Shown: positions 44,246-64,000, counted from the first letter of the stretch. The stretch: DNA of 64,000 nt from Escherichia coli (GCF_003991155.1 NZ_CP031293.1), one strand, 5' to 3'. Notes: generated from the letters alone by a model not told the origin. Made by a program: numbers and translations.

Positions 44246-45529
44246 TCACCGTTTGTAATCGATGGCTTCTGGCTGCTCCAGATATACGGTGGTTTGTGCC
44301 GGTTGTGTGCTGGCAATCACCTTGCCGCCACGTACCGAATAACGTACCGGAACCTGACGGCGCAGCGCATCAAACCCATTTTCAGCCGGCAGGATAATCA
44401 GGTTGGCGCTGTTTCCGGCGGCAATGCCGTAATCCTGCAAATTCAACGTCCTGGCACTGTGGTGGGTGATTAAATTCAGGCCATCGTTAATCTGCCCGTA
44501 GCCCATCAGCTGGCAAACATGCAGCCCCATATGCAGCACTTGCAGCATATTCGCCGTTCCCAGCGGATACCACGGATCGAAGACATCATCGTGACCAAAG
44601 CAGACGTTAATGCCGGACTCCAGCATCTCTTTAACGCGCGTGATGCCGCGACGTTTTGGATAGGTATCGAAACGTCCTTGCAGATGGATATTGACCAGCG
44701 GGTTGGCGACAAAGTTAATACCGGACATTTTCAGCAAGCGGAACAGGCGCGAGGTATACGCCCCGTTATAGGAGTGCATTGCCGTAGTGTGGCTGGCGCT
44801 GACTCGCGCGCCCATGCCTTCACGGTGCGCCAGGGCGGCAACGGTTTCAACAAAGCGCGACTGTTCGTCATCAATCTCATCACAGTGAACATCGATGAGA
44901 CGGTCGTATTTTTGCGCCAGGGCGAAGGTTTTATGCAGCGACTCCACGCCATATTCACGGGTAAATTCAAAATGCGGAATCGCCCCCACTACGTCTGCCC
45001 CTAAGCGTAACGCCTCTTCCAGCAACGCTTCACCGTTGGGATACGACAAAATCCCTTCCTGCGGGAAGGCGACGATTTGCAGATCAATCCACGGCGCAAC
45101 TTCCTGTTTCACTTCCAGCATCGCTTTCAACGCAGTCAGCGTTGCGTCGGAGACATCGACATGGGTACGCACATGCTGAATGCCGTTGGCAATCTGCCAT
45201 TTCAGCGTTTGCCAGGCGCGTTGTTTCACATCGTCATGGGTTAATAACGCTTTGCGCTCGGCCCAGCGTTCAATGCCTTCAAACAGCGTGCCGGACTGAT
45301 TCCAGTTCGGTTGTCCTGCGGTTTGCGTGGTGTCCAGGTGAATATGCGGCTCCACAAACGGCGGTATAACTAAACCTTGTTCGGCATCCAGGCTGTTTTC
45401 AGTTATGGGCATCACGCCGGATTGCGCATCAATGGCGCTGATTTTTCCGTCCTGCAGATAAATCTGCCACAGCCCCTCTTTGCCAGGTAACCGGGCGTTA
45501 ATAATTGTTTGTAAAGCGTTATTCGACAC
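44246..45529 (-). CDS. codA: Cytosine deaminase
   Basis: GTG start (cac at 45527-45529 on + strand) gives 427 aa [16 protein letters not shown]...; overlaps codB stop by 11 nt. Confidence 0.95.
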
Positions 45530-46778
45530 TGTTAGCCTCCACATGCGTCATTGCTGCTGTCGTTTTACGATTCAAAATCGGGTTAAGGATCAGATAGCTC
45601 AGCGCGCCACCTAATACCGCGTTGACCGGAACAATTCCCGGTAACCAGTGGCCTGCGGCAATCCCCAAGGCGACCGCCAGAATCGCCACCCAATTGACAC
45701 TCATCATACGCGTGGTCGCAAAGTGCTCATAGCGGCGACGGTTCATCAGATAGTCAGCGATGATCACGCCCCCTACCGGAGGAATAGCTGCCGAAAGGAA
45801 GGTCAGCCAGCCGACAAAATTGTTATACAGCCATAATGCGCAGACCGTACCGATAATACCGTTGATTACCGAAAGGGTTTTGCTCGACATCCCGGTAATG
45901 TTGGCGAAACCTAAGCCCGACGCATAGAGCGCGTTATCGTTGGTGGTCCAGATATTCAGCCCCAGCACCACAATCGCAGGCAGCAGCAGACCCTGAGCAA
46001 TCATCACATCAGAGATATCCGCCATCCCCAGTGCCGCCGCGCCCGCTGCACCGAAAATAAACATCAACGAGTTGCCGAGGAAAAAGGCCACCATCGCCAC
46101 CAGCACCGCCAGTTTGGCATTACGACCAAACCGGACAAAGTCAGCGGTGAGCGTGCCCGCACTGATAAATGACCCCACAACCAGCGCCAGCGCGACATTG
46201 AAATCTAACGGTTGTGCGGGAACGACCGCTTTTAATGCGTCCAGGCCGCCCATGCCGTTAACGGCCAACCACACGGAATAACCGCCAAGACAGGCGATAG
46301 CCGGAACTGCAATCACCGAAAGAACCGTCAGCGCCGAAATGCCAAAGAAGACGGTTACGGTCATCAGTAAACCGGAAACGGCAATCAGCAAATTAATATC
46401 CAGCCCGGTTGCCTTGCCCACCGGAATAGCAAACATCGCCACGCCAACGCCAAACCAGCCAACCTGAGTTCCGCCCAGTAGCAGTGAAGGCAGCCATGAG
46501 CCTTTAACACCAAAAGAGAAGCGAGCAAGAAGATGAGTGGTCAGGCCGGTTTTTGCGCCAATGTAACCAAGAAATGAAGTGTAAATACCGAGGAGAAGAT
46601 TACCGATGAGGACTGCGAGGAAGAAATCATGATAGCTAAGACCGGTTCCGAGAGTGCCGCCGGTCCACATACTGGCGGAAAAGAAGGTTAATCCCAGCAT
46701 GACGAACGTCAATGCCAACACCCCTTTCCGCGCCGACTGCGGGACTGGCCCCTGGCTAAAGTTGTTATCTTGCGACAC
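45519..46778 (-). CDS. codB: Cytosine permease
   Basis: 419 aa multi-[35 protein letters not shown]... Confidence 0.93.
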
Positions 46779-55923: not shown

Positions 55924-56336
55924 CGAGGCCTCGAACCCCGTACCATACAACAATCCTGGTTGTCGTCTGCTCTTCCTGATGAGCTAATGGCGGTTTTTGA
56001 TATGAGCCTTACAGCATATTTTCTGTCAGGCTTGAGTGCGATACGTAAGATACAGAAAAGACCCCACACAAACATGATGGAATTATGATTTTTTTCATAT
56101 GAATGTCAACCCACACATTCACAAAACATCTGCATGAGATCATTTTTTTATACACCGTATAGCTGCGAAACCACTGCTGATGCTTTTTTAAGCGAAGCGT
56201 CGCCGATCACAACAAAATATCGGCGAAAAAGGCGGTGGAATGCCATTTGGCATACGGATATACAGATGAAATGATCACCTGCTTTGCGATTCACTCTCTG
56301 GTGGAATAACAACTCGCAGGTGGAACCCTTTCTGAA

Positions 56337-57152
56337 CTAAAGAGTGTAGCGGATTTTAACGTGCTTATTTACAGGATAATATCTGTCACCTAATTCCTGC
56401 ACTCTATTAGATATCCATTCATTTAATCGCGCATCATCTCTGTATGTTTTTACGTCCAGAACAGAGAGCAATAACCTCACCAGTGATTCAGGAAAAACAG
56501 GGTAGATATTTTTTAAGTGTAATAATAATCCATGCGCAAGCGCCTGCTTAATGGGCGCGTCGGTCTCCGGGATAGACGACATTTCGCGAAGCCATTTTTC
56601 CACATGCATACACTCTTTCCCTTTAGGGAAAAGTCTCAGCAAAGGCATATGGTGTTCAAGAAGAATACATTTGCAATCTGTTCGCACTGAATCGATAAAC
56701 TGCACTAATTTCTTAAGCCCGGTAAAGCGTCCAGCCTGCACATTTGCTTTAATATCAAGAAACGCATCATCCTGGTCATATACCCAAACTGTCCCTTTTT
56801 GATTTTCAAGTATGCGAAAAACAAACTTAACCGGGTGATCAGGGTAATCCATCCAGTCATAAAATCCAGGGAAATCATTAAACTGCACATTTATGGTGAG
56901 TGCGTTATCGTCTGACCACTCACAGTCTCGCACGGCTGCCATAAGATGAATGAGTTTGTCATCATCGACTAAATCATCACGACAATCATAAGGATAATCA
57001 TAATATTGTTTAATCAAAACCTTGAATATATCGACACAGGAAACCAGAGAGCTTTTGATATCCTCCGGTAACTGGTTGTTTTTAACCGTATTAAGTATGC
57101 TTTGTTGCGTATATGGCATCAAATTATTGTGTGGAGCTTTTAATGATATCAT
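56337..57152 (-). CDS. yahL: Uncharacterised acidic protein YahL (low-GC gene)
   Basis: 271 aa ORF with no recognisable motif; visibly AT-rich coding sequence. Confidence 0.7.
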   Translation of the reverse strand: MISLKAPHNNLMPYTQQSILNTVKNNQLPEDIKSSLVSCVDIFKVLIKQYYDYPYDCRDDLVDDDKLIHLMAAVRDCEWSDDNALTINVQFNDFPGFYDWMDYPDHPVKFVFRILENQKGTVWVYDQDDAFLDIKANVQAGRFTGLKKLVQFIDSVRTDCKCILLEHHMPLLRLFPKGKECMHVEKWLREMSSIPETDAPIKQALAHGLLLHLKNIYPVFPESLVRLLLSVLDVKTYRDDARLNEWISNRVQELGDRYYPVNKHVKIRYTL

Positions 57153-57394
57153 CGCGATCTCTCTTAAATAAAAATAAACGTCGCAGATAATAAAGCTCTG
57201 ATTAAACCAGGCACTATCAGAAATCGCTCATAACTAACGTGTGAAGTATTGTGTCCTGGAGGGAGTTAATTTAACAATTTGAATTTACGTTATAGGTTTT
57301 ACTGCTACTTTGATATTATTTCGCTCTCCTTAACTAAAAAGTTAAGTGGAGAGCGAAGTTAATATGTTAAACCACAGGATATTTATTAATTGTT

Positions 57395-58444
57395 TCAGTC
57401 TGTTAGTGTGCGATTATCGATAACAAAACGATATTTCACATCTCCTCGCAGCATTCGCTCATAGGCTTCATTAATTTGATCGGCCCGAATCATCTCTATA
57501 TCAGCCACGATGCCATGTTCGGCGCAAAAATCGAGCATCTCCTGAGTTTCTGGAATGCCGCCAATCATAGAACCGGCTATCGCACGGCGTTTCATGATCA
57601 GGTTGAAAACTTCCGGCGATTTATGCGGTGTCGCAGGCGCACCAACCAGCGTCATGGTGCCATCGCGCTTCAGCAAGGTGGTAAAATCGTCGAGATTATG
57701 TGGCGCAGCTACTGTATTCAAAATGAAATCGAAACTCTTCAGATGAGTCGCCATCTCATCGGCATTGCGTGAGTTAACAACTTCATCGGCCCCCAGGGCT
57801 TTTGCCGCTTCGCGTTTTGACTCAGACGTGGTAAACGCCACCACATGCGCCCCCATCGCGTGGGCCAGCTTGATCCCCATATGTCCCAGACCGCCGATGC
57901 CAACCACGCCCACTTTTTTACCCGGCCCGGCCTGCCAGTGACGTAGCGGCGAATACGTGGTGATCCCTGCACACAACAAAGGAGCCACCGCCGCCAGCTG
58001 CTCTTGCGGGTGACGAATACGCAAAACATATCGCTCATGAACGACGATCTGTTGTGAGTAGCCGCCCAGAGTATGGCCCGGTTCGTCCGGCGTCGGCGAG
58101 TTATAGGTGCCGGTCATGTGATCACAGTAGTTTTCCAGCCCGTCTTCACACTCTTCACAATGTTTACAACTGTCGACAATACAGCCGACACCGACCAGAT
58201 CGCCCGGCGCATGTTTTTCTACCTGATCACCAACGGCTACCACACGCCCCACAATTTCATGACCCGGCACGCAGGGGTAAACCGTCCCCGCCCACTCGGA
58301 ACGGACCTGGTGGATATCGGAATGGCAGACGCCACAGTAAGCGATTTCAATTTTGACATCATGCGGTCCCGGTTCACGCCGGGTAATATCCATCGGTTCC
58401 AGCGGTTGTTTAGCGGAATATGCACCAACAGCTCTGATCTTCAT
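57395..58444 (-). CDS. yahK: NADPH-dependent aldehyde reductase (Zn-dependent ADH family)
   Basis: 349 aa; CGVCHSDIH, GHEIVGRVVAVG; Rossmann GVVGIGGLGH. Confidence 0.9.
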   Translation of the reverse strand: MKIRAVGAYSAKQPLEPMDITRREPGPHDVKIEIAYCGVCHSDIHQVRSEWAGTVYPCVPGHEIVGRVVAVGDQVEKHAPGDLVGVGCIVDSCKHCEECEDGLENYCDHMTGTYNSPTPDEPGHTLGGYSQQIVVHERYVLRIRHPQEQLAAVAPLLCAGITTYSPLRHWQAGPGKKVGVVGIGGLGHMGIKLAHAMGAHVVAFTTSESKREAAKALGADEVVNSRNADEMATHLKSFDFILNTVAAPHNLDDFTTLLKRDGTMTLVGAPATPHKSPEVFNLIMKRRAIAGSMIGGIPETQEMLDFCAEHGIVADIEMIRADQINEAYERMLRGDVKYRFVIDNRTLTD

Positions 58445-58820
58445 TGTGTTTACTCCTGATTAGCTATGTGTATTTGGCGATGCCTGATATGTCATCGCGG
58501 CAAAACGCGTCCATTGAATATAGCCAATATTTAAACCACCCGATCCAGCCCCAACATGCCGCGAGCCTGAATGAAACAGAGCAGCAACGTTCCCCATAAG
58601 GCGAGCGCCTATAAGTGTGATATTTGCTATCCGTAAAAGACAAAAATCGGCAAAACTGATGATATTTTCACGTAGACAAATAGTTATCTACACAACGTCA
58701 ATAAGGGCATATTCTTCAAAGATAATGTCCATTTCTGCCGACACACTCATACTCAGGCCGCCCCACTCCCTGGGGCTTAAATCTCTTACTGTTCACCGTT
58801 GCAGATATATCAAGTTCGTA

Positions 58821-60203
58821 TCAACCTGCCACACTCCCCCACACCAGTTGCCCTTTATGGAACGTTGCGGTTCTCGGCGAGATACGCGCCACCGCCTCGG
58901 CGGAACAGGAGGCGTCCACCAGCACAAAGCTGGCGTCATCCTGCGCTTTGGGCCACACGCGCTCGCCTTTTTCGTTGAGCGGCAATACATCGCCAGTGGC
59001 TAAAAACAGCGAACGGGACAAATTCTGTTCGTTAGGACGAATATAGAGCTGCGCGTAGAGATTGGCTTTTTCCAGCATGTCGCCCAGGCCGTAGGGAGAC
59101 CAGTGGTCGATAACGCTGTCGGTGCCGGTCATGACTTGTACGCCTTTGTCGTGCAACTGTTTGAGCGGCATATGCAGCGTGCCAATCGGCACCGTCGAGG
59201 CGATAGAAATTTGCTGCGCCGCCATCCGGTGCGCCAGTTCATCTACCTGTTGCTCATTGAGCGTTGCCAACGCAAAGGCGTGACTGATGGTCAGCTTGCC
59301 CTTCAGCTGTGGCGTTTTCTCTACCGTTTCAACCATATAATTGATGGCTGCCACGCCCGACGGAGTGGTTTCGTGCAGGTGAATATCGACGCCTTTGTCG
59401 TAGTCCAGCGCAATCTGGAACATGGTGTCGAGGGATTTTTCCATCGCGCCATCGACACTGGTCGGGTCCAGTCCGCCGACGTAATGCGCACCCGCCTGCA
59501 TCGCTTCGCGCATTAAGGGTTCTGATTTCGACAGCAGCAAACCGTGCTGCGGGAAGGCGACAATTTCACACTCGAAGCCCGCCTGACGTCGCGCCAGAAC
59601 CGCCTGCAAATTTTGCAGATTTTTCAGGCCGGAAACCGGTTCGATATTGCAGTGGCTGCGGGCAATGGTGGTGCCTTTCGACTGCAATAAATCGATCAGT
59701 TTTTCCGCCCGCTCCTGCGTGTACGGTTGTAACTCCGGCAGCATTTTCTGCTCGAGTTTGATCATGTCCTGGATGGTGGTGCCTGCCGGGCGATTGAGCG
59801 AGCGCCACGGCCCGCCGTAGAAAGTTTTGTCGAGATGAATATGCATGTCGCGGGTGGTGGGCAGCATCAACTTACCGCCTGCGTCATAGTGCGGCAGCGT
59901 GGCCTCCGGATGCTGCTTGTTCTCGCGCAGGGCAACAATTTTGCCGTTCTGAATCTCTACGGTCTGGTGCGCCGTGCGGGTCTGCACCGCCACACCGTTT
60001 TCGTAGTCAAAACCGGTTTCCAGCAGCACGTTGTCGAGATAGTAGTGCGGGTCAGTGATTTTCATGGTGTTATTTGCCTCGCAGTGGGTTGTGCCAGAGA
60101 CTGCCGCATGGGCGAGCGGCACTGAGGTACCAAACAGCGCGGCGGCGGTAACCATCTTACCGCTCTGGCTCAGAAATTCACGGCGGCTATTGTTTTCTTT
60201 CAT
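58821..60203 (-). CDS. yahJ: Amidohydrolase/deaminase-family protein with twin-arginine (Tat) signal peptide
   Basis: 460 aa; N-terminus MKENNSRREFLSQSGKMVTAAALFGTSVPLAHAAVSG (SRREFL Tat motif); metal-dependent hydrolase motifs (HIHLD). Confidence 0.85.
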   Translation of the reverse strand: MKENNSRREFLSQSGKMVTAAALFGTSVPLAHAAVSGTTHCEANNTMKITDPHYYLDNVLLETGFDYENGVAVQTRTAHQTVEIQNGKIVALRENKQHPEATLPHYDAGGKLMLPTTRDMHIHLDKTFYGGPWRSLNRPAGTTIQDMIKLEQKMLPELQPYTQERAEKLIDLLQSKGTTIARSHCNIEPVSGLKNLQNLQAVLARRQAGFECEIVAFPQHGLLLSKSEPLMREAMQAGAHYVGGLDPTSVDGAMEKSLDTMFQIALDYDKGVDIHLHETTPSGVAAINYMVETVEKTPQLKGKLTISHAFALATLNEQQVDELAHRMAAQQISIASTVPIGTLHMPLKQLHDKGVQVMTGTDSVIDHWSPYGLGDMLEKANLYAQLYIRPNEQNLSRSLFLATGDVLPLNEKGERVWPKAQDDASFVLVDASCSAEAVARISPRTATFHKGQLVWGSVAG

Positions 60204-60212
60204 CTTACGTCC

Positions 60213-61163
60213 TTAGGTTTTAATAATATGGGTGCCCGTTTCGCCGCGTAGCGCCGCAGGCAGGCATTCCGGCGTGGTGATAATCACTTTTTTACCGCCC
60301 TGCTCCAGGAACGTCAGGCTGGCGATGATTTTTGGCAACATGCTGCCGGGTGGGAAATGCCCTTCCTGCATATAGCGGGTCATGGTGGCAATATCCACCC
60401 GATCCAGCACCTGCTGCTGCGGTTTGCCAAAGTGAATACACACTTTTTCGACGCCAGTGGTGATCACCAGAATGTCGGCGTGAATTTCACGGGCCAATAG
60501 CGCGGTAGAGAGATCTTTGTCGATAACCGCGTCCACGCTTTGATAATCTCCCGCTTCGGTGCGCACCACAGGAATTCCACCGCCGCCCGCGCCAATCACC
60601 ACAAAGCCTTGTTGGATCAGCGCCTTAATGGCAGGTGCTTCGACAATACGTTTCGGTTCCGGCGAGGCGACCACGCGGCGATAGCCCCGTCCGGCATCTT
60701 CAACAAAACGCCAGTCAGGGTTTGCCTTTTGTAGTTCGTCACGCTGGCTTTCACTAAAGAATGCGCCGATGGGCTTGGTGGGATGGGCAAACCCCGGATC
60801 GTTTTTATCCACTTCCACCTGAGTCACCACGGTGACGGCTTTTTTCTCGCCGTGACGCGCCAGCCGGTTATTCAGCGCCTGCTGGATCAGATAGCCAATG
60901 CCGCCTTGCGTATCCGCCACACAGTTCGCCAGCGGCGTTAAGGGCAGCCCTTCGCGCTCGTGGGCAATCTCCGCGCGGCGTAAATCCAAACCGACCTGCG
61001 GTCCGTTGCCGTGGGTCAGCACAATGTCGTAATCGGAAGCCAGCATTTCCAGCACCGTATCGGCGACGGCCTTCACCGCCTCCGCCTGATGCTCAATCGA
61101 CTGGCTGGCGTTATCTTTGATAATGCTGTTGCCACCAATGGCAACGACCACAAGTTCTTTCAT
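60213..61163 (-). CDS. yahI: Carbamate kinase-like protein
   Basis: ORF-track frame to 61280 would overlap yahG; ATG at 61163 gives 316 aa MKELVVVAIGGNSIIKDNASQ... Confidence 0.85.
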   Translation of the reverse strand: MKELVVVAIGGNSIIKDNASQSIEHQAEAVKAVADTVLEMLASDYDIVLTHGNGPQVGLDLRRAEIAHEREGLPLTPLANCVADTQGGIGYLIQQALNNRLARHGEKKAVTVVTQVEVDKNDPGFAHPTKPIGAFFSESQRDELQKANPDWRFVEDAGRGYRRVVASPEPKRIVEAPAIKALIQQGFVVIGAGGGGIPVVRTEAGDYQSVDAVIDKDLSTALLAREIHADILVITTGVEKVCIHFGKPQQQVLDRVDIATMTRYMQEGHFPPGSMLPKIIASLTFLEQGGKKVIITTPECLPAALRGETGTHIIKT

Positions 61164-61258
61164 GTTGTTATGTCCGCTACAGAGGGTGATGGGGTTATGA
61201 GAGTGAGGTTGCCCTTCTCCCCAAAAGGGAGAAGGTATCGTAAGGTGCGGTTGGAGGG

Positions 61259-62677
61259 TCAGACGCCGTAACGTTCGCACCAGCCAAGAATGGCTTTCTC
61301 GAAGCAGGCGAAGGGTGGATGCACAATGCCCGCGCCAATCATGCCGACGCCCGCATCTTTATGGGCAATGGCGGTGTTGATCACCGGCAGAATGCCGCTG
61401 CTACCCACGCGGGTGATGTCGATTGCCGACGGCACGCCCATAAAACCGAGCAGCGGAATGGTCACGTTGGGGTTTTCGCCGAGAGTGATTTCGCGCATCT
61501 GACGGGAGAAATCGATAGCCTCTTCCACCGTACCGCCCACCAGCGCGACGATTGCAGGCGCGGTCGCCATAGCAAATCCGCCAATGCCGTAGGTTTCGGT
61601 GATGGCGCTGTCGCCGATATCCAGCCCCGAATCTTCCGGCTTATAACCGGCAAACATCGGGCCGATCACCTGCTGCGCCGGACCGGTAAACCATTGCCCC
61701 GGTAATCCGCTGACCCGCAGACCGAACTCGACGCCGTTACGCGCCATGGTGGTCACCACAGTGCTGTATTCGATGCCGTGCGCCGCATCCATCGCCGCTT
61801 TACACATCGCCATCCACGTCGGGCCGGAGAAGTAGTCACTGCTGGCGACAAACTCAAACACTTCGCGCTGTTGCTCGACGGAGTAGCCCGCCTGAATAAT
61901 CCCCGGCGTCAGCGCCTGAATCAGCAGCGTCGTCCCGGCGTTATTGCGGTTATGGCACTCATCGCCCATATGCAGCGCCTGCGCCAGCATTAAGCGCAGA
62001 TCGATTTCGCCGATAATTTTCATCGCGTCGCGCAGCATGGGTCCCTGCACATCGCGCATCCAGTTGAGGCGGTCGATCACGCTCTGGTCATTAGCGCCCA
62101 TACGCAAAATCTTCGCCATCTGCTCGCTCATGTTGGTATAAGCGATGTTGCCGTAGGTTTTGTTTTTCACGATGTGCATAAACATCGAGGCCGAGGTGAC
62201 GCCCGCCATCGATCCCACACAGTCGTGCTCGTGGCACGGCGAGAAAGTGATCTCACCGGAAGCCGCCAGTTCAGCCGCCTCGTCGAGATCTTTCGCCAGC
62301 CCTTCGAACACCAGCGCCCCGGTGACCGCGCCTTTCATCGCGCCGCACATTTTTTCCCAGGTGACCGGCGGCCCGGCGTGAAGAATGGTTTTCGGCGTCA
62401 TGCCCGGCACCACGTTAATCGCCTGATCAAAACCAATCAGCACCGGATGTGACTGAATAATGCGTTCCAGCGCCTGCTGGTTAGCGGCGGCGATTTTGTC
62501 TGCCAGCGGCGAATCGGCAATGTTGTCCAGCGCCTGCACCACCTGCATATTGCCCTGCCCCGGCGGCGTCCAGTCGAGTTGAGTCACTTCTACATGCTGC
62601 TTTTTCAAATCATCGCTAAACATGGCGATGCCGACGTTAATAACGTTCAACGGTTGGCTAAACAGTGACGGGCTCAT
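61259..62677 (-). CDS. yahG: DUF1116-family protein YahG
   Basis: 472 aa; start ATG overlaps yahF stop (ATGA), implying translational coupling. Confidence 0.8.
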   Translation of the reverse strand: MSPSLFSQPLNVINVGIAMFSDDLKKQHVEVTQLDWTPPGQGNMQVVQALDNIADSPLADKIAAANQQALERIIQSHPVLIGFDQAINVVPGMTPKTILHAGPPVTWEKMCGAMKGAVTGALVFEGLAKDLDEAAELAASGEITFSPCHEHDCVGSMAGVTSASMFMHIVKNKTYGNIAYTNMSEQMAKILRMGANDQSVIDRLNWMRDVQGPMLRDAMKIIGEIDLRLMLAQALHMGDECHNRNNAGTTLLIQALTPGIIQAGYSVEQQREVFEFVASSDYFSGPTWMAMCKAAMDAAHGIEYSTVVTTMARNGVEFGLRVSGLPGQWFTGPAQQVIGPMFAGYKPEDSGLDIGDSAITETYGIGGFAMATAPAIVALVGGTVEEAIDFSRQMREITLGENPNVTIPLLGFMGVPSAIDITRVGSSGILPVINTAIAHKDAGVGMIGAGIVHPPFACFEKAILGWCERYGV

Positions 62678-64000
62678 CAGGCTTCCTCCCCTTTGCAGAT
62701 AAATTCACGCGCCAGCAATCCGGTATTGGTGCTGCTGCTCGCCAGAATCACTCCGGCATCAAGCAGCATCTGGCTTTGTTGTTCTAATGATGGCGTATCA
62801 AGATCGGTACCCAGCACATAGGCGAGAATGATCAACTCGCGTCCTTCGGCAGCGGCGATCGCTTTCGCCTCTTTGATCGCCTCGATGGTGGAACCGACCG
62901 GATCTTCATGCGATCCAAACCCGAGCACAAAATCCATCACGATCACCGCCACTTCTGGATCGCGCGCTTCTTCGATCAACCGGCTGATGCGGTTGGTCGG
63001 GTCAATCATTGGATGCGGCTTGCCGTTGGTAAAATCGTCATCGCCAAAGTCGAGGAAGGTATGTTTGACGCAGCGGTTGATATCTTTCAGGCGGAATTCA
63101 GGATCGGGCTGGATGTTGCTGTAGACATCGCCGTGTTTTTCCATCACCGCGAACATGGTTTCGTCACACAGCGTACCGCCGCAGAACAGGCCACGAATGT
63201 ATTTCTGTTGTGGCTTCAGGCGAGCGCGCACGTCAGCAATCAATGGCTGGTTCAGGGTATGCAGATCGAGATGTTCCTGTTTCACGCCGGAGAGCATTAC
63301 CGCTTTCAGCGCCGCTTCTTTGCTGCCGCGAGCAAACTGTAGCCCCTGCTCATCCACTGGCGTTTCGCCACGACCGAGGAAGCAGACCACCACCGGCTTG
63401 CGGCAGGCACGTGCGCGTTCCAGCACTTTGCGGGCCACCGCAGGCGCAGGCGGTTTGGAGATAAGCACAATGATTTCAGTTTGCGGATCGTTTTCCAGCA
63501 TCCCGATGGCATCGAGCATCATCAGACCGCCGATTTTCTCGCTCAGGTCGCGCCCGCCGGTGCCAATCAGTTGCGAAACGCCGCCGCAAAATTCATGGAT
63601 ACGGACGCTCAGTTCCTGGCTGCCGGTGCCAGATGCGCCAACAATGCCGATGTTGCCGCGACGCACGGCGTTACCAAAGCAGAGCGCCGCGCCGTTGATA
63701 ATCGCCGTACCGCAGTCTGGCCCCATCATCAGCAGCCCTTTTTCGTGGGCCAACTGTTTGAGCGCCAGTTCATCTTCAACTGAGACGTTATCGGAAAACA
63801 GCATCACGTTAAGATCGTTTTGCAGCGCCTGACGCGCTTCGCGAGCGGCAAACAGACCGTTGACCGAAATCACCGCCAGGTTACTTTCCGGGATATGCTT
63901 TTTGGCGCTGGCAATAGTGGCATAGCGTGCTTCATGTGAACCAGTTTGAGCTTTGGTGTTGAACAGTTCTTCAATCTCCACCAGCAACTGCTCGTTGTCT
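62677..64000 (-). CDS. yahF: FdrA-like (CoA-binding, succinyl-CoA-synthetase-like) protein, 3' part only (5' end beyond window end)
   Basis: Frame open to window end; track 'start' at 63987 is an in-frame TTG, not the true start. Confidence 0.8.
   Translation of the reverse strand, partial: DNEQLLVEIEELFNTKAQTGSHEARYATIASAKKHIPESNLAVISVNGLFAAREARQALQNDLNVMLFSDNVSVEDELALKQLAHEKGLLMMGPDCGTAIINGAALCFGNAVRRGNIGIVGASGTGSQELSVRIHEFCGGVSQLIGTGGRDLSEKIGGLMMLDAIGMLENDPQTEIIVLISKPPAPAVARKVLERARACRKPVVVCFLGRGETPVDEQGLQFARGSKEAALKAVMLSGVKQEHLDLHTLNQPLIADVRARLKPQQKYIRGLFCGGTLCDETMFAVMEKHGDVYSNIQPDPEFRLKDINRCVKHTFLDFGDDDFTNGKPHPMIDPTNRISRLIEEARDPEVAVIVMDFVLGFGSHEDPVGSTIEAIKEAKAIAAAEGRELIILAYVLGTDLDTPSLEQQSQMLLDAGVILASSSTNTGLLAREFICKGEEA

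Follow-up and report, generated by a model that had tools for sequence, protein, structure and literature searches.

We analyzed a 64,000-nt stretch of Escherichia coli DNA (GCF_003991155.1, NZ_CP031293.1; hereafter the window) and found that positions 58821-64000 encode, on the minus strand, complete yahJ, yahI and yahG together with the 3'-terminal 440 codons of yahF, in agreement with the four minus-strand genes of a first-pass annotation. These are already annotated, known but unstudied E. coli genes; several E. coli chromosomes match a 5.6-kb stretch at 100% identity and have its genes labelled yahJ, yahI, yahG and fdrA, and at least 80% of this stretch is found in 5018 of 5426 complete genomes. 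Since their Pfam and NCBIfam scores far exceed the cut-offs, the yah ORFs are real genes. The operon was previously described as having four genes, but it extends past the window through yahF to yahE and yahD and has six (yahDEFGIJ), so the window holds the downstream two-thirds of it. The regulator gene yahB, outside the window, is divergent from the operon, and the locus is flanked by betT/pdeL on one side and yahK/prpR on the other, away from the all locus. Ribosome profiling of EHEC handles yahDEFGIJ as a single operon (PMC4765031), and our search within the window detected no sites resembling promoters or terminators on the minus strand of the gene interiors. The window also contains codA (44249-45547).

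Of the three junctions that the window covers, two are tight. At the yahF/yahG boundary, the sequence is GCC TGA TGA GCC; the first TGA terminates yahF, and the yahG ATG has one base in common with it, so the genes overlap by 1 nt (TGATG, within TGATGA, with a tandem stop) and not by the 4-nt ATGA given in the first-pass annotation. The yahI/yahJ gap (60204..60212, minus strand) is 9 nt, TAAGGACGTAAGATG, the length reported before, and a Shine-Dalgarno-like AAGGA overlaps the yahI stop codon. This short gap, along with the lack of internal signals, favors co-expression of yahI and yahJ. The same annotation had taken all the junctions as coupled, which does not hold for yahG/yahI, where translational coupling is rejected because 95 nt lie between the genes. 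This spacer (61164..61258, minus strand) contains a hairpin with a 9-bp stem at 61213-61235 (arms 61213-61221 and 61227-61235), and its 95 nt align to the 421-nt spacer that holds the 'yahH'/REP23 array in K-12; the short form occurs in 650 of 5426 genomes.

The partial gene yahF (62677..64000, minus strand; stop-free when translated from 63999) is cut by the window end and encodes in full a 515-aa FdrA/AllF-like subunit with CoA_binding and Ligase_CoA domains and a succinyl-CoA-synthetase-alpha-like fold. Full YahF scores 488.8 bits on NF004760 (cut-off 433) and matches the FdrA structure 3dmy with an E value of 4e-81. Downstream, yahG (61259..62677, minus strand) encodes a 472-aa protein of the AllG family, formerly DUF1116 (PF06545, 298 bits), which matches the uncharacterised protein 3clq at 1e-195, and YahE scores 99.8 bits on PF11392. 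The Pfam domain names for YahG and YahE are now AllG and AllH. Hence, subunits of the AllF (HMA_AllF_N, CoA_binding, Ligase_CoA), AllG and AllH families are encoded together by adjacent or overlapping genes, and the carbamate kinase gene of the same operon, yahI, follows yahG on the same strand after 95 nt.

The first-pass annotation had drawn a parallel with the fdrA-ylbE-ylbF-carbamate kinase group, and the identities bear it out: 38% for YahF/AllF, 45% for YahG/AllG and 38% for YahI/AllK, with 23% (E 2e-9) for YahE/AllH and 39% for YahB/AllS, whose yah genes lie outside the window. In addition, residues 2-53 of YahG match the C-terminal tail of AllF, which argues for a physical association of F and G. 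With YahF and YahG, the F and G proteins of Neobacillus share 61% and 76% identity and those of Trichococcus 55% and 65%; the Trichococcus proteins share only 36% and 45% with AllF and AllG. Judged by these identities and by the 3clq match of YahG, YahF and YahG form an orthologous group apart from AllF and AllG. We also considered YahEFG as orthologues of AllFGH and rejected this, given the identities of 38, 45 and 23%, the 55-76% identity of the Firmicute F and G proteins and a locus away from the allantoin genes.

The third gene, yahI (60213..61163, minus strand), encodes 316 aa of the carbamate kinase family (PF00696) from an ATG, which is the RefSeq start; upstream, its frame stays open as far as a GTG (61280), and solved carbamate kinases align from residue 3 onward. 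On NF009007, a model of a carbamate kinase subfamily, YahI reaches 648 bits (cut-off 266), and at 346.9 bits it lies slightly short of the cut-off of 358.25 of the arcC equivalog TIGR00746 and so outside that equivalog. It aligns end to end with the carbamate kinase of P. furiosus (1e19, E 4e-83), with the GGN, HGNGPQVG, DKD and GSMxPK stretches retained. We found no assay of YahI in the literature searched.

The last gene, yahJ (58821..60203, minus strand), encodes a 460-aa amidohydrolase with predicted Tat export (PF07969, 66 bits). YahJ scores 715 bits on NF005312, an unnamed 'amidohydrolase' subfamily (cut-off 447), and only 70-104 bits on the cytosine deaminase equivalog models (cut-offs 403-483); with NF005312 the only such model passed, its identification as a cytosine deaminase or another named enzyme fails at the equivalog level. 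The nearest solved structures are 6nbo, AtzC and CodA, and the metal and catalytic residues of CodA are retained as H121, H123, Q219, H275, E278, H308 and D362. By its residues (HxH, His, His and Asp, plus Gln and Glu/His), YahJ belongs to the cytosine deaminase/AtzC branch. Across 14 diverse relatives, H121, H123, Q219, H275, H277, H308 and D362 are invariant, whereas E278, the equivalent of Glu217 of CodA, is present in E. coli YahJ and variable across the family. Since this glutamate is not invariant, the chemistry may be an amine displacement of the AtzC type and not a simple deamination. YahJ forms a small family of its own: a set of 1.84 billion proteins yields 167 cluster representatives at E <= 1e-30.

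YahJ begins with a twin-arginine signal peptide (coding region 60105..60203, minus strand; MKENNSRREFLSQSGKMVTAAALFGTSVPLAHA), in which SRREFL at residues 6-11 is followed by a hydrophobic stretch and AHA, as in the Tat pattern S/T-R-R-x-F-L, hydrophobic core and AxA; cleavage is predicted at MKENNSRREFLSQSGKMVTAAALFGTSVPLAHA|AV. This signal, already recognized in the first pass, has its counterpart in 86 of 88 YahJ relatives (RR in 76, RK in 10), and the YahJ homologues of a Bacillus-like genome and of Paenibacillus lie next to tatA and tatC, which lends genetic support to Tat export. YahJ has also been named as a predicted Tat substrate (PMC7549933, PMC3027627). The YahJ-like enzymes of several Firmicutes are cytoplasmic. 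A YahD-like ankyrin protein co-occurs with YahJ relatives in four lineages. YahD has no signal of its own in Gammaproteobacteria, its homologues have their own export signals in Bacteroidota and probably also in Alphaproteobacteria, and the Firmicute ankyrin protein carries fused TPR repeats and lies beside YahF/G even where there is no YahJ gene.

Gammaproteobacteria and Firmicutes share a gene set of which the yah operon is the Escherichia version; the full set comprises YahJ, YahD, YahE/F/G, YahI, an AllS-like or PucR-type regulator and, mostly, an AzgA-like permease. Among loci found via YahJ, F, G and I are all present in 28 of 80 species, 42 of the 80 loci have no other yah homologue within 10 kb and seven have the ankyrin gene only; loci found via YahG include Trichococcus and Peribacillus, each with two YahJ-like genes. 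EFG genes without YahJ occur in E. faecalis and in an IncF plasmid copy, so that YahJ and EFG are linked only facultatively, each occurring without the other. The yahE gene is missing from the Enterobacter, Lelliottia and Aeromonas clusters. The regulators, for which the first pass had proposed comparative genomics, are the AllS-like YahB in proteobacteria and PucR in Firmicutes.

Between yahG and yahI, 24 of the 28 full clusters of other species encode an AzgA-like nucleobase permease, labelled 'xanthine permease', and a Xan_ur_permease gene adjoins the lone Bacillus-like YahJ homologue. E. coli has the spacer or the REP array at exactly this position and has no cluster permease; the permease is absent only from the Escherichia-type arrangement, and we detected no remnant of its gene at the yahG-yahI spacer. 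Without the permease, E. coli may have only an incomplete pathway. The membrane protein gene yahC is unique to Escherichia-type loci. The split between a periplasmic YahJ and cytoplasmic partners, called unusual in the first pass, is less odd than claimed because the clusters of most other species encode a nucleobase-type permease that could bridge it and the YahJ-like enzymes of several Firmicutes are cytoplasmic.

On balance, and with modest confidence, we favor a pathway in which yahDEFGIJ would degrade a nitrogen compound resembling a nucleobase, via exported YahJ, YahEFG and YahI, with carbamoyl phosphate and then ATP as products. YahJ would fold and take up its metal in the cytoplasm and then, as its signal suggests, be exported by Tat; in the periplasm, its catalytic residues and gene neighbours point to deamination or another hydrolysis of a nucleobase-like nitrogen heterocycle or amidine. 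The product would be imported, as the permease of other species suggests. By paralogy to AllFGH, YahEFG would then convert an acyl-ureido compound and phosphate to carbamoyl phosphate and an amide or amine, and YahI, by its similarity to proven carbamate kinases, would convert carbamoyl phosphate and ADP to ATP, ammonia and CO2. A pathway yielding carbamoyl phosphate had been suggested in the first pass, and this is now on firmer ground because oxamate carbamoyltransferase activity was demonstrated for AllFGH in 2024 (PMC11326118) and AllK has proved to be a catabolic carbamate kinase (PMC9843812). Several observations weigh against the favored pathway: yahE is missing from some clusters although full AllFGH function requires AllH (PMC11326118), YahJ and EFG are linked only facultatively, the E278 position varies in the YahJ family, E. 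coli has no cluster permease, and YahI falls slightly short of the arcC equivalog cut-off.

As a special case of this pathway, YahEFG could be a second oxamate carbamoyltransferase acting on oxalurate from a non-allantoin source, e.g. parabanic acid or other urate or guanine oxidation products converted by YahJ. We consider this possible but unlikely. Enterococcus faecalis and Carnobacteriaceae have F and G of the Yah type and not the All type, oxamate transcarbamylase was first found in streptococci and enterococci as a parabanic acid-induced activity according to the work cited in PMC11326118 (its refs 21-23), and the PucR-type regulators suggest purine catabolism. However, with YahF/G 38-45% identical to AllF/G vs 55-76% to their Firmicute counterparts, a different specificity fits equally, and YahJ belongs to the deaminase/amine-displacement branch and not to the cyclic-imide hydrolases. 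A far smaller probability falls to YahF as an acyl-CoA synthetase in a cluster that activates a carboxylic acid, with YahI using another acyl phosphate and no carbamoyl transfer; we think this highly improbable. Its RefSeq name ('acyl-CoA synthetase FdrA'), its two CoA domains and its likeness to succinyl-CoA synthetase alpha would suit such a role, but AllF bore the same label before it was proven to be an oxamate carbamoyltransferase subunit (PMC11326118), an AllG-type partner always accompanies YahF, a carbamate kinase does so too in proteobacterial clusters, and an AllH-type subunit is usually also present (missing in 5 of the 28 full clusters and in Aeromonas).

There is a small but appreciable chance that in E. 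coli the operon has become cryptic or is decaying as a remnant, with its enzymes still encoded but the pathway idle owing to the loss of the dedicated permease and an invasion of the operon by repeat elements. The permease pattern (24 of 28 full clusters, missing only in the Escherichia-type arrangement) and the gap in its place (95 nt here, a 421-nt REP array in K-12) are consistent with decay, as are E. coli yahJ alleles with in-frame deletions, one of which loses the DIHLHE metal site, and a y-ome survey that records no phenotype or function (PMC11551758). Against this, all four ORFs are unbroken here (yahF as far as the window end), 5018 of 5426 genomes retain at least 80% of the cluster, an ExPEC strain deleted for yahJ was slightly but significantly less competitive in mice (CI 0.70; PMC7549933), and E. 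coli has many other nucleobase transporters, while the YahC membrane protein might substitute. Less probable still is that YahJ, together with YahD, is an independent periplasmic deaminase for scavenging or detoxification, next to yahEFGI by shared regulation or chance. The YahJ loci without another yah homologue (42 of 80, with seven more holding the ankyrin gene only) and a homologue of 78% identity that stands alone beside an integrase fragment in a Shewanella sp. fit this idea; however, in phylogenetically distant genomes Yah-type EFG repeatedly has a YahJ-like neighbour, also at loci identified via YahG, and the 9-nt yahI/yahJ junction without internal signals favors co-expression.

An extension of the favored pathway is more speculative, and we regard it as unlikely in its entirety: the genes would encode an ATP-yielding, arginine-deiminase-like pathway for a so far unrecognised nucleobase-like substrate, YahD would be a natural Tat 'hitchhiker' that reaches the periplasm bound to YahJ, and the E. 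coli version would be truncated because the cluster's own permease has been lost. Candidate substrates would include parabanate or oxonate (urate or guanine oxidation products) and an amino-triazine or amino-pyrimidine analogue.

Among known systems, CodA and AtzC, which have a mononuclear metal centre, belong to the same fold family as YahJ and share every metal and catalytic residue with it, whereas YahJ has a Tat signal and its own small family. In Tat hitchhiking, a partner without a signal is carried across the membrane by one that has it, e.g. the small and large subunits of E. coli hydrogenase, or DmsAB. Engineered ankyrin-repeat proteins can also cross Tat as hitchhikers (PMC6478843). 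In sequence, YahJ, with its twin-arginine signal, and the signal-less YahD of Gammaproteobacteria resemble such a pair.

The arginine and agmatine deiminase pathways consist of a deiminase, a catabolic carbamoyltransferase, a carbamate kinase and a transporter; imino or amino nitrogen is removed hydrolytically, the ureido group is phosphorolysed and ATP is made from carbamoyl phosphate. The proposed yah pathway would resemble the arginine deiminase pathway in its logic, with a cluster transporter present in most species, but neither of its first two enzymes is a homologue of ArcA/AguA or of an ornithine/putrescine transcarbamylase, and the first is predicted to be exported in Gram-negatives; this is a likeness of working, not family membership. 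The AllS-activated allFGH-allK system (fdrA-ylbE-ylbF-ybcF) has the same families subunit by subunit, a carbamate kinase gene next to them and, as in yah, a LysR regulator of the AllS kind, and the same chemistry, phosphorolysis of an acyl-ureide to carbamoyl phosphate and then ATP, would be expected for yah. In contrast, the yah genes are paralogues (23-45% identity) at another locus, in the order E-F-G vs F-G-H, with the F/G boundary displaced by about 50 residues, an added amidohydrolase (predicted to be exported) and ankyrin protein, and no allantoin genes nearby. The yah gene set represents an uncharacterised instance of a pathway type that is already known.

On the minus strand of 58821-64000, we found three complete open reading frames and one that is cut by the window end: yahJ (58821-60203, 460 aa), yahI (60213-61163, 316 aa) and yahG (61259-62677, 472 aa), which are annotated on the chromosome as amidohydrolase family, carbamate kinase family and DUF1116 proteins, respectively, and the fdrA-like yahF, which occupies 62677-64000 and continues past the window end. 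The stretch has 100% identity to several complete E. coli chromosomes, and of 5426 complete genomes of the species, 5018 contain at least 80% of it. In a matching chromosome, the transcription unit extends upstream of the window, where yahE (DUF2877) overlaps yahF by 11 nt and yahD (ankyrin repeats) lies before yahE; the LysR gene yahB and yahC (DUF1097) are transcribed divergently from yahDEFGIJ, and the gene order in K-12 is the same. All four window genes, their family labels and the twin-arginine (Tat) signal of YahJ are already in public annotation. The G+C content of the yah genes is 0.54-0.61, compared to 0.34-0.43 for the A+T-rich yahL/yahM region, and the low-G+C yahL region beside the operon suggests a mosaic of separately acquired DNA. 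This low-G+C DNA is at 56000-57500, and yahL itself (56337-57152) has no Pfam match. The 376-nt gap between yahJ and yahK holds a 75-nt RefSeq pseudogene fragment (58531-58605, minus strand; 'hypothetical protein, missing N-terminus').

The junctions between these genes are tight, with one exception. The first-pass annotation had described a 4-nt ATGA overlap of yahF and yahG, but the sequence is GCC-TGA-TGA-GCC, so the overlap is 1 nt with a tandem stop: the first TGA ends yahF, and the yahG ATG has one base in common with that stop. The 9-nt gap between yahI and yahJ is as first noted, with a Shine-Dalgarno-like AAGGA that extends across the yahI stop. This gap is in frame, and in a few database sequences the loss of the yahI stop codon has fused YahI to YahJ. 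The exception is the 95-nt spacer between yahG and yahI (61164-61258), which folds like shuffled sequence (z = -1.09) apart from one short hairpin with a 9-bp stem; since an Rfam scan of 57000-64000 (E <= 1) gave zero matches, this hairpin is not a known RNA family. This spacer is polymorphic, with the complete 95-nt short form in 650 of 5426 E. coli genomes, and in K-12 it is a 421-nt REP element array (L003:9745-10165, our K-12 comparison locus) that was formerly annotated as yahH (PMC11551758; PMC4765031). A consensus scan, whose counts were not above those for shuffled sequence, found no minus-strand promoter- or terminator-like site inside the genes and no clear terminator 3' of yahJ, so the 3' end of the transcript cannot be judged from it. 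Ribosome profiling of EHEC handles yahDEFGIJ as a single operon (PMC4765031).

The likeness of these genes to the fdrA-ylbE-ylbF-carbamate kinase group proved to be a paralogy that can be measured subunit by subunit at 23-45% identity. YahF is 38% identical to AllF (FdrA) over its full length, YahG is 45% identical to AllG (YlbE), YahE is 23% identical to AllH (YlbF; E 2e-9), YahI is 38% identical to AllK (YbcF), and the regulator YahB is 39% identical to AllS, whose model is its top NCBIfam match. YahI can be aligned over its entire length with carbamate kinases of known structure (E 4e-83 to 1e19), and it scores above the carbamate kinase subfamily model cut-off and 11 bits below the arcC equivalog cut-off. 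Residues 1-52 of YahG correspond in alignment to the C-terminal 50 residues of AllF; hence, the F/G gene boundary is placed differently in the two paralogues, and this shift argues that F and G would act as one physical unit. The Aeromonas, Enterobacter and Lelliottia clusters are without the AllH-like yahE (comparison loci L004:3943-4224, and L023-L026 and L080 between the ankyrin gene and yahF), and full activity of the paralogous AllFGH requires AllH (PMC11326118); in these clusters, YahE is either dispensable or replaced by another protein.

YahJ belongs to a small family (167 cluster representatives at E <= 1e-30 among 1.84 billion proteins), and its closest solved relatives are N-isopropylammelide isopropylaminohydrolase entries (6nbo, AtzC) and cytosine deaminases. 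Its scores fall well short of the cytosine deaminase cut-offs, and the one model that it passes is that of an unnamed 'amidohydrolase' subfamily. Its sole other relative in the window is the cytosine deaminase gene codA (44249-45547, minus strand; E 1e-18), which lies ~13 kb from yahJ on the same strand. Aligned to CodA, YahJ retains the HxH residues H121/H123, the substrate-binding Q219, the third metal histidine H275, the catalytic E278, His308 and Asp362. Among 14 diverse YahJ relatives, H121, H123, Q219, H275, H277, His308 and Asp362 are invariant and E278 is not. Some E. coli yahJ alleles have in-frame internal deletions of 27-46 residues, one of which loses the DIHLHE metal-binding stretch (database relatives P0012, P0018, P0034 and P0001 are the sequences concerned in these deletions and in the YahI-YahJ fusions). 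We considered whether the signal peptide is missing from the shorter E. coli variants and rejected this, as they keep it and have these internal deletions instead.

The twin-arginine signal of YahJ (MKENNSRREFLSQSGKMVTAAALFGTSVPLAHA) holds up across the family: of 88 relatives (43-98% identical), the RR motif is present in 76, RK in 10 (all Bacteroidota) and neither in two. In a Bacillus-like genome, tatA and tatC come immediately after the gene of the YahJ homologue, and a divergent Xan_ur_permease gene lies before it; a Paenibacillus homologue likewise adjoins tatA/tatC. YahJ was previously listed as a predicted Tat substrate (PMC7549933; PMC3027627). Deleting yahJ in ExPEC gives a competitive index of 0.70 in mice, and this small fitness defect hints at a substrate that occurs in the host (PMC7549933).

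We then scanned one genome per species with a YahJ alignment, which gave 80 loci, and sought the other yah proteins by tblastn; because these loci were found via YahJ, they cannot show how frequently YahJ stands beside EFG. YahJ was alone in 42 of the 80 loci, and 28 also carried YahF, YahG and YahI, in every case with a YahD-like ankyrin gene. In 24 of these 28 full clusters, a 515-aa membrane protein is encoded between yahG and yahI. It has no Pfam, NCBIfam or PDB sequence match, so its identity as a permease rests on the names that NCBI and JGI give to its close homologues (xanthine permease or AGZA-family xanthine/uracil permease). The permease is absent from four full clusters, those of E. 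albertii, two Pseudocitrobacter and Kluyvera; these four have the Escherichia-type arrangement and are the only full clusters with yahC. The permease position is the site of the 95-nt spacer of the window and of the 421-nt REP array of K-12. We found no permease remnant in the E. coli spacer, which has only ~15 nt upstream of the yahI start in common with Citrobacter. Since the permease is found in Aeromonas, Providencia, Citrobacter, Enterobacter, Serratia and Neobacillus alike, its loss from the Escherichia lineage is the simplest reading.

Among 5426 E. coli genomes, 142 do carry the permease gene, and most of its places are on plasmids (106 of 152). IncF plasmids carry an IS-flanked second cluster (E. 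coli pMTY1886_IncF, NZ_CP128971.1; comparison locus L092:3107-11540) in the order LysR, ankyrin, E (DUF2877), F (FdrA-like), G (DUF1116), permease, carbamate kinase; this copy is without yahJ and has transposase fragments at the expected yahJ place. In Citrobacter, Yokenella and some others (comparison loci L015-L021 and L076, ~2790-2880), a frame upstream of yahD is open for ~30 codons with a conserved 'MKFKRMLFS.LCCYSQ', which may be only conserved regulatory DNA of the yahB-yahD intergenic region.

The ankyrin gene accompanies YahJ beyond the full clusters. In seven of the 80 loci (Cedecea, Erwinia, an Enterobacter, Microvirga and three Pontibacter), it is the only yah homologue near YahJ and directly adjoins it, the Cedecea, Erwinia and Enterobacter loci each also carrying a YahB-like regulator, and the same pairing occurs in two metagenome contigs. 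The ankyrin domain of Firmicutes is part of a fusion with TPR repeats and lies beside YahF/G, in Jeotgalibaca even where the locus is without a YahJ gene. Hence, YahD is a consistent member of the gene set, and it is probably a binding partner of YahJ, of YahFG or of both. Where it would act in E. coli can be read in two ways. Bacteroidota homologues start with lipoprotein-type or Sec-type signals (e.g. MKTLLLLSLMGLFPSC), two alphaproteobacterial-type homologues have a conserved hydrophobic N-terminal extension, and the gammaproteobacterial homologues, E. coli YahD included, are signal-less. E. coli YahD could possibly be co-exported with YahJ by Tat hitchhiking, which has been demonstrated for engineered ankyrin-repeat proteins (PMC6478843), and a role as a cytoplasmic chaperone or scaffold is likewise possible.

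Loci found via YahG show the link from the other side. In Trichococcus, genes for two cytoplasmic YahJ-like proteins (36-37% identity) and an ankyrin-TPR gene stand directly upstream of E-F-G. Peribacillus has E-F-G, ankyrin-TPR and kinase genes, and a pair of YahJ-like genes (41-44%) lies a few kb from them; the E-F-G loci of E. faecalis and Jeotgalibaca have no YahJ-like gene. Hence, YahJ and EFG are often linked in different phyla, but the link is facultative, and the amidohydrolase can also be a cytoplasmic enzyme. On an island of avian pathogenic E. coli, a further E-F-G-kinase cluster includes genes for a permease and for a hydrolase of the isochorismatase family (PMC3349570), which suggests that the module is combined with differing upstream hydrolases.

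From what the comparisons show (gene identities and paralogies, retained catalytic residues and signals, and neighbourhood statistics), we infer a pathway, with its enzymatic steps and the export, in which YahJ would hydrolyse or deaminate a nucleobase-like nitrogen compound, outside the cytoplasm in Gram-negatives, and the AzgA-like permease, where present, would take the compound up. It would reach YahEFG as an acyl-ureide, which phosphate would split to yield carbamoyl phosphate, and YahI would convert carbamoyl phosphate to ATP, ammonia and CO2. The AllS-like and PucR regulators and the permeases point to a purine- or pyrimidine-related substrate class. A cytoplasmic YahJ relative adjoins isochorismatase, amidase and gamma-glutamyltranspeptidase-family genes and a Bmp-type ABC transporter; biuret, allophanate and oxamate are substrates in families of these enzyme types, which makes triazine-like or ureide compounds candidates as well. 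Oxalurate-forming substrates are one candidate because parabanic acid induces oxamate transcarbamylase in a Streptococcus, according to a historical report as cited in PMC11326118. Species comparison provides three handles that were absent from the first reading, the missing permease, the AllS-like regulator and the ankyrin partner of a Tat substrate: adding the permease back could awaken the E. coli pathway, and the inducer of the regulator can be screened. A function for six adjacent K-12 genes (b0318-b0324) would close a visible y-ome gap.

As a whole, the region was real and correctly read at first pass, the kind of pathway being known and this member uncharacterised. The literature found with the terms used mentions neither the absence of a permease at the yahH position, the recurrence of YahJ next to a YahD-like ankyrin protein across phyla, a separate Yah-type F/G orthologous group nor the shifted F/G boundary. 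AllFGH was identified in 2024 as oxamate carbamoyltransferase, a three-gene enzyme that is not related to classical transcarbamylases (PMC11326118), and work from 2022 established AllK as a catabolic carbamate kinase (PMC9843812); the yah genes are not mentioned in either paper. Current Pfam names imply the parallel with the all genes, as the YahG domain is now named AllG and that of YahE is named AllH. By sequence, YahF and YahG are more than diverged copies of the all genes. YahG matches structure 3clq (an uncharacterised protein) at E 1e-195, and the matching protein lies in an Enterococcus-type contig with the order PucR regulator, AllH-like, AllF-like, AllG-like, membrane protein. The Neobacillus niacini proteins are 61% identical to YahF and 76% to YahG, and those of Trichococcus collinsii are 55% and 65% identical to YahF and YahG versus 36% and 45% to AllF and AllG. 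Hence, the Yah-type F and G form their own orthologous group, common to Firmicutes and Proteobacteria. YahE has diverged much further: its identity is 26% in Neobacillus and, for a match of only part of the protein, 31% in Trichococcus. If this pathway is correct, E. coli and many gut and soil bacteria would have a second route from ureides to carbamoyl phosphate and ATP, via the AllFGH type of enzyme.
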